DNA of 35,023 bases from Candidatus Hermodarchaeota archaeon (GCA_048885865.1 JBHLLF010000028.1:1-35023), one strand, 5' to 3'; positions 5,237-34,324 are shown, numbered from the stretch's first letter. A program made the numbers and translations. Notes: generated from the sequence alone by a model not told the origin.

Positions 5237-5338
5237 CTACTTCTTGATTCGTTCTTCTTCAATTCGTTCAAGTGTGACTAGAGCTGAGATACAAACATCC
5301 ATCGTCATACTCGGATATTGATTCTCTACCTTCTCAAC
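5237..5338 (-). pseudogene. 3' remnant of a paralog of the 6965-7324 gene
   Basis: Own translation VEKVENQYPSM-TMDVCISALVTLERIEEERIKK* aligns to IERLENRYLSM[17 aa]TMDDYINALLTLEKIEDGRIKQ*. Confidence 0.8.
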
Positions 5339-6964: not shown

Positions 6965-7324
6965 TTATTGCTTTATTCTCCCATCCTCAATCTTCTCAAG
7001 CGTTAGAAGTGCGTTGATGTAATCGTCCATTGTCTGGGTTCTCTCTTTCAAAGTCAAACTTGAATCAAGAATCCGCTTCCTCAACATACTCAAGTACCGG
7101 TTCTCAAGCCTCTCGATATAGGTTGACGATCCCATCTTTGTCACTTTGATTCTTGGTTGACTCTGTATGTATTCGATTAGTCTGACCCAGCTTTCAGCAG
7201 TTACTGGATTGAGGCCAATCCTTTGGAACTCGGACTTTGGAAATGGTTCAGGCTGAGCCTCGATGAAGCTGAAGATAGACTCTGCTCGTTCGGCCAGTGT
7301 TCGTCGACGCCTCTTTTTGGACAT
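6965..7324 (-). CDS. Small basic protein, putative winged-helix DNA-binding protein (119 aa)
   Basis: Start MSKKRRRRT at 7324, probably leaderless, with TTTATATA about 25-30 nt upstream. AESIFSFI..FPKSEFQRIGLNPVTAESWVRLI..IKVTKMGSSTYIE fits an HTH plus wing (inference). Confidence 0.7.
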   Translation of the reverse strand: MSKKRRRRTLAERAESIFSFIEAQPEPFPKSEFQRIGLNPVTAESWVRLIEYIQSQPRIKVTKMGSSTYIERLENRYLSMLRKRILDSSLTLKERTQTMDDYINALLTLEKIEDGRIKQ

Positions 7325-20026: not shown

Positions 20027-20101
20027 GCCATTTTTGCCTACATTCTTAATCCAGTTTGAAGTATTTTCTTTAAGCTGAGCCGGTTCGGCGGAATAGCCAT
20101 G
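20027..20101 (+). pseudogene. Decayed copy of tRNA-Cys promoter plus 5' end
   Basis: 20027-20049 matches 30024-30046 at 19/23. 20075-20101 matches 30073-30099 at 22/27, and all five differences are transitions. Spacing between blocks is 25 vs 26 nt. Confidence 0.8.
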
Positions 20102-30076: not shown

Positions 30077-30151
30077 GCCGGTTTGGCGGAGCAGCTACGC
30101 GACAGACTGCAGATCTGTTTTACCTGGGTGCAAATCCCAGAGCCGGCTCCA
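30077..30151 (+). tRNA. tRNA-Cys (GCA), intronless, CCA encoded
   Basis: Acceptor GCCGGTT/AGCCGGC; D arm GCG..CGC; anticodon arm ACAGA-CTGCAGA-TCTGT (GCA at 30109-30111); T arm CTGGG-TGCAAAT-CCCAG; discriminator U then CCA. TATA-like CTTAAAA about 30 nt upstream. Confidence 0.95.
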
Positions 30152-30157
30152 CTTCTT

Positions 30158-31006
30158 CTAATCAACACGTATTTTCCTTGAGAATTCTAAGGGCGGTTGT
30201 GCTGGGTCTTTGTGGAGCTTTGGGTCCCAATATAGTTCGTCACAGAAATCTCCACTGAATAGAGTCTGAGTTCTTCTCATCTGGACATTCTGATTTCTCC
30301 GGTTGCCTATCACCATACCTGGATAACATGTGACCAAATACCCCACCTCTGGGTCACTGACATTCTTCAGAGATTCGTGGGCTACGCACTTGTCAAACTT
30401 ACCTAGAAACATGCCGTCATCAATTCCTGCGACAGCGAAAGAAAATCCCCCACTCTCAGCAAGACCACTGGTGAAGTTCTTGCTAAACTGTGAAATCTTT
30501 GTCAAGTCGGGTTCTAGTCTAGCCTGCTTATCAGCCATTGAATCAACTGCATCTTTGTACACTCTGATTCCTTCTTCTCTTCCCAACAATTCAACAAGGA
30601 CTCTAACCATCTCATAGAATAGAATGTTCTCTGCCTTTTCACGGTCGATATACAATATCCTAGAATCTTCAGGATTCTTGGTTACACCTTTCTGTTGAAT
30701 CAAGTGGCTAAGAATTAATCTTGAAGCAGGGAGTAGTAACTCTAATTCCTCACTGAGAATGGGAAGTTCATTTTTGATTTCATCAAGACCAATCGCACTA
30801 TAGTCAACATCTGCAGCACCTTCATTTCTTGACCATGCTGATATGACCTGTTCTGCAAATTCATTGATGGTACTTTGGATTCGGTCAAGAATAGATTCCA
30901 ATGTTTGTTCTAAACGTTTGAGTGTCCTGAGTGTGAATGAGTGAAGATTGATCTCGATTGTGGCTTCGGAATTATACGAATTGAAGGACTCATAGTCAAG
31001 CGTCAT
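30158..31006 (-). CDS. Protein with C-terminal ATC-hydrolase-like (V4R-related) domain
   Basis: FDKCVAHESLK..PEVGYLVTCY...MRRTQTLFSGDFCD matches the L-2-amino-thiazoline-4-carboxylic acid hydrolase family pattern from memory. It has a helical N-terminal extension. Confidence 0.7.
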   Translation of the reverse strand: MTLDYESFNSYNSEATIEINLHSFTLRTLKRLEQTLESILDRIQSTINEFAEQVISAWSRNEGAADVDYSAIGLDEIKNELPILSEELELLLPASRLILSHLIQQKGVTKNPEDSRILYIDREKAENILFYEMVRVLVELLGREEGIRVYKDAVDSMADKQARLEPDLTKISQFSKNFTSGLAESGGFSFAVAGIDDGMFLGKFDKCVAHESLKNVSDPEVGYLVTCYPGMVIGNRRNQNVQMRRTQTLFSGDFCDELYWDPKLHKDPAQPPLEFSRKIRVD

Positions 31007-31049
31007 AATAATTCAGTCCGAGTCCTTCCTAATAATGCCAATGTCCAGC

Positions 31050-31075
31050 GCAAATCCCAGAGCCGGCTCCACTTC
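31050..31075 (+). repeat. tRNA-Cys 3'-end duplicate (att-like)
   Basis: 26/26 identical to 30130-30155. Confidence 0.95.
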
Positions 31076-31209
31076 CTGTTCTATATCAAGAATAAATCAG
31101 CCGACAGGTCTTTCTCTTATCTCATGTCTCTGCTGAGGTCCGACTCATACCGGCTCCATTTATTCTCCGCAAGTTTCTTTTAGGAGCAGACCACTCATTT
31201 GTGGCTGCA

Positions 31210-31575
31210 ATGAAGGAGGACAAGTATCTCATCACGTTCAATCTCTTGATCCTGTTAGCTTTGGTGCTACAATTCCTTGCCCTTTGGGGATATACTCCAC
31301 CCCTCAACATGATTGGCACAATTGCATTAGCTTCCTTAGCATTGATTGGATTGACAATAGGTTTGGTCGGACAATATCGCAACCCAATCGAGATATGGGG
31401 TTCAGTAACGGTCTCAATTGGTCTAGTCATAATGACTTTCTTTGTACTGCCATGGTCGTTTCATCCTATCTTTCTAGGTATAGGACTCATCCCTTACATC
31501 TTAGGGCTATATCGCCAACAGCAAGAAAGCGAAAAAGGAGAGTCATCAACGGTCAATGATGATTCATTGGCATGA
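31210..31575 (+). CDS. Hypothetical four-TM membrane protein
   Basis: Hydrophobic segments and a charged tail; ATG at 31210. Confidence 0.7.
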   Translation: MKEDKYLITFNLLILLALVLQFLALWGYTPPLNMIGTIALASLALIGLTIGLVGQYRNPIEIWGSVTVSIGLVIMTFFVLPWSFHPIFLGIGLIPYILGLYRQQQESEKGESSTVNDDSLA

Positions 31576-31729: not shown

Positions 31730-32236
31730 TCACGATTGACCAGCTTCTAATGGTGAACGATATCCCAATTCTTTGAGCTTCTTGTATAGGTGCTTTGTGG
31801 ATTCCACGGTTCCCGAACTTCTCCATCGGGCAGCAATATAGGGCTCAATAGATTCGATTTTCTCATACCATGACACGCAAAAAACAGCTAGAGCTTCGGG
31901 AACTAAGTTTGCACTTGTTGCTTTTGCTTCGATTAGCTTGCCCATTGAATCAAAGAAAGATGCAGCGAGGATGAATTTTGCATACGCACCTGGATTAGAC
32001 AATGGACCGTACTTCTCAATGAAATCTTCCGGGCCGCTCCAATTCCATTCACGAAGGATTTCAGACACCATTTCAATAAACTCTAGGTCAGCTTGGCTGT
32101 GAAAATCTAGAAAAACTGATGCCTGCCGTGACTTTGCCAAATTCCTCAATGAGAGAACACTCATAATAACAGCAAAGACTACACTCATCGCTGCAATTAT
32201 GATTGAAATTGATTCTGGATTTAGCTCAAACTGCAA
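31730..32236 (-). CDS. Membrane-anchored hypothetical protein (DUF4760-like)
   Basis: N-terminal TM, then KSRQASVFL, DFIEKYG, FFDSMGKLIE. Confidence 0.7.
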   Translation of the reverse strand: MQFELNPESISIIIAAMSVVFAVIMSVLSLRNLAKSRQASVFLDFHSQADLEFIEMVSEILREWNWSGPEDFIEKYGPLSNPGAYAKFILAASFFDSMGKLIEAKATSANLVPEALAVFCVSWYEKIESIEPYIAARWRSSGTVESTKHLYKKLKELGYRSPLEAGQS

Positions 32237-32256
32237 TTGGATTACACTCTATTTTT

Positions 32257-32904
32257 CTATTTCATCACCAAAGATATTGCCTCGGAGGGGCAAGTAGATA
32301 CGCAGAGGCCGCATCCGTAGCAAAGATCATCATTCACTTTCAACTGGCCATCAATAATTTCTCTTGCTCCAAAATGACACCGCTTGACGCATGTTCCATC
32401 ATTGACACACTTCTCCAAGTCTGTGACTGAAATTGCATCAGAGGTAATCAGGTCTGGATACATTTTATGCCGGAGCACAGCTGAAAAAATCGCACAACAA
32501 GTAGAGCAGCAACCACAAAGGCGGTTCACTTTGTCATCCCACATTGCGTACGCCATATGAACAAGTCCTGCTTCATTGGACATTTTCAATGTTTCAATCG
32601 CTTCTTCCTTTGTGATCTCTACAGTGTTTTGATTCTTATAGACATCAGTGTCAAGGAGTGGTTTTGCAGTATCCCAAGCAATGCATGTTCTCCGCGGAGA
32701 ATCACAGTTTTGCATCATGGTCCTACAAATGCAGTCTGAGAGGTAGATGTGTTCGGCATCCTCAAGGTATCTCACAGCTTGGTCAATATTGAGAATCTTA
32801 GGTTCTGCCTTCAAATCCACATTGACAGGAATTGTGATAGCTGTATGCCACCTTTCGAAATTCTTGATTTGCTCCAACATCTTCGGATCCCAGTCTCTCT
32901 CCAA
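32257..32904 (-). CDS. 4Fe-4S dicluster domain protein
   Basis: CICR..C..C, LCGCCSTCC, CVNDGTCVKRC, CYGCGLCVSTCP. Confidence 0.9.
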   Translation of the reverse strand: MERDWDPKMLEQIKNFERWHTAITIPVNVDLKAEPKILNIDQAVRYLEDAEHIYLSDCICRTMMQNCDSPRRTCIAWDTAKPLLDTDVYKNQNTVEITKEEAIETLKMSNEAGLVHMAYAMWDDKVNRLCGCCSTCCAIFSAVLRHKMYPDLITSDAISVTDLEKCVNDGTCVKRCHFGAREIIDGQLKVNDDLCYGCGLCVSTCPSEAISLVMK

Positions 32905-33017: not shown

Positions 33018-33671
33018 CTAACGTTCAGCTAGTTTCTGTGCATCATACGCAAGTGCTACAATTACTACGATTGGCATAAGGATGACCATGGCGAGGGAGA
33101 AGACCACCATTATGCCCGCTGTTGCGGTAACATCCAGGGGCAGGCCAAAAATCTGGATTCCAACCGCTGTCCAGAACACAATAACGAAGAGGATGAGTAG
33201 TGACGGCCATAGCTTTGCCAAGAATACTCGACCAGGAAGACGTTCACGCCACCAATTCAAGGGTCTATTAATTTTGGTTGCGATTCCAACAGCAAGGAGA
33301 GATAGGAAGATTGGGGCAAAGCCACCACCGACGAGAAAGACAGTAAGAGTGAGGATGAGCAAAACACTCGCCCCATATTTTCTCTGAACAAAGAAAGCAG
33401 CCCAAACACAGACTATTATGCCAAAGATCACGGCAAGAATCCCTGTCCAAAGGAAGCTGGGCACGATTGTCAGAGCGGTTTCCATGCCGCCCTCCCAGAA
33501 TCTGATGTCATCACCAATGGCATCTATCATTATCCCACCTGTTGGTGTATCACCCTGAAGGATCTCAAAGATGCCATGCTCAATGCTCGCAAGACCAACG
33601 AGAATTCCATAGGTTGTAGCTACCGCTCTCGCTGCATTTGATTTGAGCCAATTCCCTTCCGAACGTGTCAT
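33018..33671 (-). CDS. Hypothetical multi-pass membrane protein
   Basis: EHGIFEILQG, ALTIVPSFLWTGIL, LVGGGFAP; about 6 TM segments. Confidence 0.78.
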   Translation of the reverse strand: MTRSEGNWLKSNAARAVATTYGILVGLASIEHGIFEILQGDTPTGGIMIDAIGDDIRFWEGGMETALTIVPSFLWTGILAVIFGIIVCVWAAFFVQRKYGASVLLILTLTVFLVGGGFAPIFLSLLAVGIATKINRPLNWWRERLPGRVFLAKLWPSLLILFVIVFWTAVGIQIFGLPLDVTATAGIMVVFSLAMVILMPIVVIVALAYDAQKLAER

Positions 33672-33937
33672 AGCGAATCAACAATCAGACTGCTCACTGA
33701 TATAAGAGCCTGATGCTTCAAAATCAAACTTAGCACATTATTCAATCAAATATCTGTAATAGAATTCTTTTGGAAGTTTCGAGATTCTCGTACGCTATCC
33801 ATTCAGGCGCAGCATGTGCTGTTGTCCCACACCAATCTCGCTTTTGCACCCAGTTGGCAAGATTCACAGCAACTCCTCGTAAGAAAGATAAGCAAGTAAG
33901 ATGGCAAAAAGAGTAACACCATGGTGTGTGGTTAGAA

Positions 33938-34324
33938 ATGAGCGGGGAAATTCCCAGCTTTGCCAAGTATGTGTTTCTACTCGGCTTCATTGCTTCTATC
34001 GTATTCGGAGTATGGACCTTTCTATCTCCGGAATCGTTTAGTGCAATCACCGAATGGCCAGATGAACCTGCGTCGACTCGACTAGTAGGATCATTCCTTA
34101 TTTCACTCTCAATCGCGGCGCTTCTAGCCTATCGTGCTTCTTCCTGGAAAGATGTGGAGCTCTATGTGCTGATCATCATTCTGTGGATGGTCCTAGGTAC
34201 AATATCACTGGTCTGGGCCACGCTGGTGGTACCGCTGCCTATCATTGGTTGGGCACTTGCTGGTCTGCTGATGTTATTCTTCGTCTTGTACCTGTACGTC
34301 TACATGCAAGGAAGGGCCAGTTGA
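33938..34324 (+). CDS. Hypothetical four-TM membrane protein
   Basis: Four TM segments; WPDEPASTRLVG. ATG at 33938. Confidence 0.75.
   Translation: MSGEIPSFAKYVFLLGFIASIVFGVWTFLSPESFSAITEWPDEPASTRLVGSFLISLSIAALLAYRASSWKDVELYVLIIILWMVLGTISLVWATLVVPLPIIGWALAGLLMLFFVLYLYVYMQGRAS

Follow-up and report, generated by a model that had tools for sequence, protein, structure and literature searches.

Behind the tRNA-Cys gene of a Candidatus Hermodarchaeota archaeon, a single gene lies between two perfect copies of the tRNA's own 3′ end, and this islet is one unit of a lineage-wide pattern, not a one-off. The stretch analyzed, hereafter the window, measures 35,023 nucleotides (GCA_048885865.1, JBHLLF010000028.1:1-35023) and is the entire contig C28 of genome G000, a metagenome-assembled genome (MAG) of 3.58 Mb in 117 contigs that is 87% complete. 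The islet is quite probably a discrete cassette that was inserted in trans. To the fuller reading, in which an enzyme acting in trans added a one-gene cassette, made up of a promoter, an open reading frame (ORF), and a 26-bp copy of the tRNA-Cys tail, as the youngest unit of an additive stack, we give about an even chance.

Anatomy of the Cargo Unit

The repeat consists of the final 22 nt of the tRNA-Cys gene (GCAAATCCCAGAGCCGGCTCCA) and the next 4 nt (CTTC), its onset is the second base of the T loop, and the two copies stand 920 bp apart from start to start (Table 1). The sequence to the left of the distal copy, at 31050, has no relation to that of the tRNA, and 0 of 100 dinucleotide shuffles of the window matched with up to 3 mismatches permitted. 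As in a tRNA-targeting integrative element, a direct repeat of the tRNA 3′ end bounds the insert on both sides and the tRNA gene is intact. It is the sole tRNA in the window according to ARAGORN and Rfam and the sole tRNA-Cys detected in the assembly, its CCA is gene encoded as in other tRNA genes of G000, and it is the anchor of the stack.

Only 2 nt separate the cargo stop codon from the left repeat, whereas 43 nt separate the cargo ATG from the right one. On the coding strand, the motif ATTATTA at 31030-31036, centered ~27 nt ahead of the ATG, likely serves as an archaeal TATA box for a leaderless cargo mRNA. The G+C content of the unit is the same as that of its surroundings, and we found no inverted repeats at its ends. 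The first-pass annotation of the window had described an exact 26-bp repetition (T loop to CCA, plus CTTC) of the tRNA 3′ end 920 bp downstream, an enclosed DNA taken up almost entirely by one 282-aa gene, and the lack of a recombinase. The repeat proved free of mismatches and ORF calls agreed with the gene and its position next to the left repeat; the sole ORF belongs to PF14196, and profile searches found no recombinase in the genome. The checks suggested in that annotation, on relatives, assembly, recombinases, and other islets, all turned out in favor of its reading.

Table 1. Coordinates of the tRNA-Cys locus and of related copies in genome G000 (window positions unless a contig or an offset from a tRNA is given)
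Feature	Position	Strand	Remarks
tRNA-Cys(GCA), intact, CCA encoded	30077-30151	+	ARAGORN and Rfam (53.3 bits)
Proximal 26-bp repeat copy	30130-30155	+	GCAAATCCCAGAGCCGGCTCCACTTC; T loop position 55 to CCA, plus CTTC
Cargo gene, 282 aa, frame intact	30158-31006	-	Sole long ORF between the copies
Spacer, 43 nt, upstream of cargo ATG	31007-31049	-	Read directly from the sequence
Distal 26-bp repeat copy	31050-31075	+	0 mismatches to the proximal copy
Leftover of another cassette's right end, 74 bp	31076-31149		X7 records 17 and 18
Older decayed tail copy	31133-31158	+	T-arm-like hairpin, then exact CCGGCTCCA (31150-31158)
F11, 124-aa membrane protein, next unit	31201-31575	+	
Older unit: F3 (168-aa membrane protein) and F13 (215-aa 4Fe-4S ferredoxin-domain protein)	31730-32904	-	
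Distal genes F12 (217 aa) and F2 (132 aa)	33018-34324	- (F12), + (F2)	Common to G010, G002, and G013
Decayed copy of tRNA-Cys promoter, leader, and first 14 bases	20027-20092	+	~10 kb upstream of tRNA-Cys
Stray tail copies behind other tRNAs	tRNA-Gly +1214; tRNA-Tyr +11.4 kb; tRNA-Ala(TGC) +5.3 kb; a tRNA-Leu +346		
tRNA-Ala(CGC) tail copies, contig C54	136, 1637, 2265, 4311, 5183, 6261, 8206, 12891, 13596, 15300		

Variable Contents behind tRNA-Cys

None of the seven further genus genomes with this locus carries the cargo gene there, and over eight genus genomes the first slot behind tRNA-Cys has at least six different contents. The slot is filled by two genes for ICMT-like membrane methyltransferases in G010 and one in G002, by an arginine-deiminase-like gene in G011 and G006, by F3 and F13 in the closed genome G004, and by a fragment of F3 in G013; the contig of G016 ends 818 bp past tRNA-Cys with the content of the slot unread. 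A decayed tail copy closes the unit of G004 at +2149, and others are found at +852 in G013 and at +1190 in G010. The decayed copy of the window is orthologous to a copy with 3 mismatches in G010, and both precede the same F11 gene.

Two comparisons of close relatives give occupied and empty states of the site. G083 has an extra unit of 1272 bp in comparison with G075, and G084b an extra unit of 855 bp in comparison with G084a; in both pairs, the alignment breaks within the tRNA tail. Presence and absence among relatives with a break at the attachment (att) sequence is the behavior of an integrative element. Direct tRNA-tail copies that separate variable accessory genes, in a region where the gene content of close relatives varies most next to the tRNA, are likewise features of an additive island.

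The same genes recur at different depths of the stack. F11 stands directly behind tRNA-Cys in G084a and second in G000, G010, G002, G075, and G084b, between two tail copies in G084b and G075, and it is missing after the shared unit in G083; F3 and F13 come first in G004 and third in G000 and are absent between F11 and F12 in G010. With depth the boundaries fade: no recognizable tail copies are left at the distal genes of the window, and the older junctions F11/F3, F13/F12, and F12/F2 hold no convincing tail remnant. The window locus has two tail copies and a 9-nt remnant and its relatives have up to three copies; two or three copies on one contig were found in 8 of the 52 family genomes showing the tRNA-Cys tail. 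In other genera of the family, the tRNA is mostly followed straight away by a conserved row of genes. Two of the eight multi-copy genomes, G080 (L052) and G061 (L056), carry two full-length tRNA-Cys genes, 3.3 kb and 9.8 kb apart, respectively, with near-identical trailers, which may reflect either a segmental duplication of the tRNA with its downstream DNA or an insert carrying its own tRNA-Cys. Against the possibility, raised in the first-pass annotation, that gene and repeat are fixed at this position, the slot of related genomes shows different cargo or none.

Independent Assemblies and Strain Variants

The cargo gene is joined to the tRNA tail, with 97.6-100% identity, in public contigs of four studies (on sediment, mangrove, and soil, the fourth being unlabeled). 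Mangrove contig X5 spans 30122-31445, from the tRNA interior through the cargo and the right repeat into the next gene, and contig X2 spans 30122-31148, including the cargo and the right repeat; the 31-mers behind these contigs exceed the repeat in length. A chimeric join at shared tRNA sequence during assembly or binning might be suspected in a MAG of 117 contigs and in samples that contain several strains differing in cargo (with loose ends at 30151 and 31153), but single contigs from other samples and studies run through the locus and the repeat is shorter than the 31-mers, leaving such an artifact, which the first-pass annotation had named as a possible refutation, a negligible chance. The insertion had also been called recent. 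The perfect repeat agrees with this, but the cassette is common to ~2%-diverged strains of the four studies, and "recent" is therefore relative.

The contigs also reveal strain variants. In one, other DNA of 652 nt comes after tRNA-Cys before the window sequence resumes at 31098 (joint 30151>31098); in another, the cargo and its right repeat are fused to 31163 (joint 31075>31163), and 31076-31162 are lacking. The 87 bp absent in the latter are the stretch between two tail copies. As variants rejoin the window at 31098 or 31163, the 74 bp after the right repeat are the stump of another cassette.

Tail Copies across the Genome and Other Duplicated Ends

Scanning all 30 tRNAs of G000, we identified at least 16 stray copies of the segment from T arm to CCA, located behind Ala, Gly, Tyr, Leu, and Cys tRNA genes; further single genes flanked by tRNA ends, for which the first-pass annotation had suggested a search, are thus numerous elsewhere in the genome. 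The largest set is on contig C54 (L094, 1-15492), where ten same-strand copies of the final 22 nt of tRNA-Ala(CGC), with 0-3 mismatches, separate units of 1-3 tightly packed, ordinary accessory genes (amidohydrolase, MarR regulator, methyltransferase, flavodoxin, LVIVD-repeat protein, solute-binding protein, beta-lactamase-fold hydrolase, and luciferase-like monooxygenase). The head copy resembles the 3′ half of a tRNA, is preceded by an A+T-rich stretch with the look of a promoter, and has its ortholog in the head of the five-copy tRNA-Ala array in the closed genome G004; ARAGORN called no full tRNA-Ala at the head of the C54 array. Clustered tRNA-Ala tail copies occur in many genomes of the genus. 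On contig C23 (5332-16803, L095), the final 27 nt of tRNA-Tyr are repeated perfectly 11.4 kb downstream, and the interval holds metabolic genes together with an SSB-like protein, an Arf-like GTPase, and TFIIB, with no integrase.

Six different tRNAs have copies whose left ends fall close together, within positions 49-55 of the T arm, and over the ten tRNA-Ala copies these ends are nearly uniform. The T arm is reportedly a known sublocation class of tRNA-targeting integrases, described by Williams in 2002.

Duplicated ends in the window are not limited to tRNA tails. The decayed copy at 20027-20092 matches in 17 of 18 bases over CTGAGCCGGTTYGGCGGA and has a similar leader, which suggests that the upstream side of tRNA-Cys may be an insertion zone as well. 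On the minus strand of the intergenic stretch 5237-5338, we found a diverged copy (VEKVENQYPSM...ERIKK*) of the C terminus of a 119-aa protein encoded at 6965-7324 (tBLASTn E value 5e-8, local search). One TPR gene stands between them, making this the same kind of end displacement, here on a protein gene.

As a separate observation, the F3 family has four paralogues in G000 (contigs C28, C5, C54, and C84), three of which stand directly behind a tRNA or in a tail-copy array (tRNA-Cys, tRNA-Ser(TGA), and tRNA-Ala).

The Cargo Protein

The cargo protein matches PF14196 (ATC_hydrolase) over residues 129-255 with 30.7 bits, the gathering cut-off being 28.1, and its relatives are annotated likewise; we found no NCBIfam match and, by sequence, no relative of solved structure in PDB. 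It is predicted to be an ATC_hydrolase-like protein of a Thorarchaeota-specific branch of the family, and nearly all its relatives come from MAGs of Thorarchaeota (Asgard archaea). The closest of them (P0002), 97% identical, is on a short NCBI contig of 2690 bp, and the next are ~60% identical. The sister genomes G004, G005, and G007 encode homologues of 58-63% identity at another locus without a tRNA. Given that the cargo is elsewhere in the sisters and that this locus is not conserved in G000, the gene behind tRNA-Cys is a divergent copy from within the phylum and not the displaced native gene of the genus. The meeting of a cysteine-pathway family name with a tRNA-Cys location is probably a coincidence. 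A metagenome scan with the cargo protein gave distant relatives only (≤61% identity), none of them beside a tRNA-Cys tail.

Of the relatives of the cargo from metagenomes, two lie 54 nt from tRNA-Leu(GAG), which we take as ordinary synteny. On contig C9 of G000 (59240-60261, L098), a probable intron-bearing tRNA-Leu overlooked by ARAGORN is followed 346 bp on by a copy of its own tail and then by a distant paralogue of the cargo (28% identity).

Search for an Enzyme

Whole-genome profile searches of G000, with positive controls for each, detected no tyrosine recombinase (PF00589, PF16795), serine recombinase (PF00239), LAGLIDADG (PF14528, PF00961), HNH (PF01844), TnpB (PF07282), or Cas1 (PF01867), results that in an 87% complete genome, of a type that tends to lose plasmids and viruses, are not proof of absence. 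In the family, tyrosine recombinases are sporadic (30 matches in 16 of 41 genomes, including any XerA-like ones) and none of the 30 is within 90 kb of tRNA-Cys. The integrase loci of the genus (G011, G016, and G004) have no nearby tRNA or tail repeats, and the one tyrosine recombinase of the closed relative G004 is unrelated. tBLASTn with the integrases of the family found no fragment in any array, covering ~20 comparable units of G000 and its relatives. Pattern scans of IMG/VR for the tRNA-Cys tail gave nothing, or only unrelated phage tRNA clusters and chance matches. A tRNA-Ser that ARAGORN placed beside an integrase in G019 was a false call.

Discussion

The incoming form of the cassette would have been a circle of ~920 bp or a composite circle with a helper element. 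A single reciprocal crossover, presumably within the final 26 bp of the tRNA gene plus trailer, would have joined it to the chromosome, with the cassette supplying the new 3′ end of the working tRNA (the proximal copy) and the old 3′ end, together with everything behind it, being displaced 920 bp downstream. The observed anatomy is the one expected from such a crossover. We place the crossover in trans because the cassette has no recombinase of its own. The agent was most likely a site-specific, tyrosine-type recombinase of a transient helper, which would integrate beside the unit and carry it along or leave it behind; precedents are the accretion-mobilization of CIMEs and the left-behind cargo of tycheposon islands, both described below. 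The T-arm boundaries fit such a recombinase acting in trans; the enzyme need not be a tyrosine integrase. Recombination between tail copies and ordinary homologous recombination in shared flanks could later have spread, lost, and reordered the units. If the islet is a discrete cassette inserted in trans, the chance that a site-specific enzyme made the crossover is slightly short of even, and that of host homologous recombination is clearly in the minority.

Several observations weigh against an enzyme acting in trans. The same window has comparable duplications of the 3′ end of a protein gene and of the promoter and 5′ end of the tRNA itself; given such diverse anchors, one site-specific enzyme is insufficient, and either many specificities or a homology-driven process is needed. 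A helper element or tRNA-targeting integrase was not found in G000, the closed G004, or IMG/VR. No conserved core-type motif or dyad symmetry is seen on the left side of the distal copies. The back-joint of a circle did not appear among the public contigs, which cannot display rare forms, and this speaks neither for nor against the reading.

The first alternative, which we consider unlikely, is that host homologous recombination alone built the stack. Circularized fragments or popped-out cassettes with a short anchor stretch would enter by one RadA-mediated crossover, as in insertion-duplication, and long duplications would soon be lost such that only short ones (~22-29 bp) persist. That no recombinase, homing nuclease, TnpB, or Cas1 was detected in G000, that anchors of several kinds (tRNA 3′ end, tRNA promoter and 5′ end, and protein-gene 3′ end) meet in one window, that full-length tRNA-Cys genes were duplicated with their trailers in G080 and G061, and that one strain shows a deletion between two copies sharing only ~9-12 nt all speak for it. 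However, 22-26 bp are at or under the usual minimum for efficient homologous recombination, and random fragment ends would differ from the T-arm clustering over six tRNAs and the near-uniform ends at tRNA-Ala. The origin of each new gene-plus-tail unit is also left unexplained.

It is quite improbable that the islet is the residue of a larger, integrase-bearing element at tRNA-Cys, whittled down by deletions to one gene. Such elements classically leave a partial tRNA repeat that starts in the T loop, and arrays from repeated use of one site, with degenerate remnants, are known (PMC6563490, PMC9897764, and bioRxiv 10.1101/2020.12.28.424599). A unit this compact, with a promoter of its own, no debris, and many counterparts elsewhere, is unlikely to have arisen by slow decay. 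Its spacers of 2 nt and 43 nt leave no non-coding debris and the tBLASTn searches recovered no integrase fragment. Moreover, none of the 52 family genomes with the tRNA tail has a complete integrase-bearing element at tRNA-Cys, and the smallest archaeal cryptic integrated element in PMC6563490, at 2.6 kb, retains its integrase.

Displacement by a homing nuclease has a still smaller chance. The nuclease would cut a naive tRNA tail, repair from the occupied allele would bring in a replacement tail with passengers, and the nuclease would be lost later, as likened to the WHO elements of yeasts and the mobile endonuclease ORFs (mORFs) of fungal mitochondria. This would account for many kinds of anchors without an integrase, but LAGLIDADG and HNH matches are lacking in G000, no nuclease gene is found in the cargo unit or in the annotated tRNA-Cys units of relatives, and the LAGLIDADG matches of the genus are in frames of 600-1200 aa with no tRNA nearby. 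Nor is the new end a cleavage-resistant variant, given that the two tail copies do not differ.

We rejected three further candidates: a retro-element with the tail copy as primer-binding site, as all copies are oriented like the tRNA whatever the orientation of the genes and lie only behind the cognate tRNA; a split tRNA, as the copies have no 5′ partner or bulge-helix-bulge context; and the target-site duplication of a transposase, as there are no terminal inverted repeats and no transposase and the length of the copies ranges from 22 to ~40 nt.

Returning to insertion of a cassette in trans, the locus may be an instance of something more general, although we hold this as doubtful: integron-like gene acquisition in Thorarchaeota with no integrase in the array. 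Cassettes of one gene each, compact and with their own promoters, would be captured at conserved anchors (tRNA tails and gene ends or promoters), the displaced end serving as a fence, by an unrecognized enzyme family or by a host pathway acting on ~20-30 bp of homology. Integration scars in tRNA tails, tandem reuse of one site, and additive islands are already known. What is unusual is the combination of single-gene, self-promoted units set edge to edge, arrays of up to ten, many tRNAs, and the breadth of a whole Asgard family with no recombinase or fragment of one. In the literature searched, we found no account of such cassette stacks in Asgard archaea.

The genomes of Asgard archaea are large, rich in genes, and contain much DNA of horizontal origin, yet few mechanisms behind this gene flow are known. 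The locus provides a clean and datable case of one gene added at a defined site with no recombinase in the unit, and, together with the tRNA-Ala array and the stacks of sister genera, points to routine gain, loss, and shuffling of single accessory genes. If short-homology host recombination or a new enzyme is responsible, the locus would represent a new mode of cassette capture, and the interest would rise sharply if the activity proved new. The tRNA-tail copies may also be used as markers delimiting the flexible genome in Asgard MAGs.

Comparison with Known Systems

Integron cassettes, of which archaeal ones have been described (Ghaly et al., bioRxiv 10.1101/2022.02.06.479319), are likewise small, mostly single-gene units at one site, with the newest unit adjoining the attachment site and no recombinase within the cassette. 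The Asgard units differ in having no adjacent intI and no attC palindrome, in carrying their own promoters, and in lying in both orientations. There is no intI or attI upstream of the window's stack, the genes there being F39 and a luciferase-like monooxygenase, and in place of the imperfect inverted repeat of 55-140 bp that forms an attC, the repeat is a tRNA tail of 22-26 nt. A transposon or casposon is equally poorly matched, with no terminal inverted repeats in the unit and no Cas1 or TnpB in G000.

The cis-mobilizable elements (CIMEs) of Streptococcus thermophilus are mobilized by accretion with an integrative and conjugative element (ICE). Like the cargo unit, which is bordered by att copies and lacks mobility genes, they are att-flanked units without recombination genes, dependent on the integrase of a related element beside them. 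Unlike it, they derive by decay from ICEs, measure several kb, and have a known helper, whereas each Asgard unit is one gene under its own promoter, and we found no helper with a cognate integrase in the same or related genomes. CIMEs have been reviewed alongside integrative mobilizable elements (IMEs) (PMC5704250).

Elements integrated in archaeal tRNA genes by SSV-type and pNOB8-type integrases, including the integrated mobile genetic elements (iMGEs) of Thaumarchaeota (PMC6563490), agree with the present locus in that a repeat of the tRNA 3′ end flanks the insert, the tRNA is restored, and the site is reused in tandem. They are at least 2.6 kb long and have an integrase that is whole or split by integration, in contrast to the Asgard unit of 0.9 kb, which has none and whose only ORF is the PF14196 gene.

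The additive flexible island fGI-2 of 'Ca. Methylopumilus' has recurring copies of the final 20 nt of tRNA-Lys (PMC10872708). There, too, direct copies of a tRNA tail of ~20 nt delimit strain-variable accessory DNA with no integron parts. The host of fGI-2 is a bacterium, and unit size there varies from 330 bp to 42 kb; the Asgard copies, in comparison, start at the T loop, include the encoded CCA, and follow many tRNAs of one genome. The mechanism behind fGI-2 is also unexplained.

In the tycheposons of Prochlorococcus, material left by the tRNA after integration and excision builds islands (Hackl et al., bioRxiv 10.1101/2020.12.28.424599). The two systems differ in that 937 integrase-bearing elements and fragmented integrases are known for tycheposons, with excision shown by PCR, whereas we found no integrase, fragment, or helper for the Asgard units, which mostly consist of 1-3 genes with almost no spacer. 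They are alike in architecture: tRNA-proximal insertion pushes older material outward, partial tRNA copies lie between the units, and the islands are mostly left-behind cargo of ordinary niche genes and not active elements.

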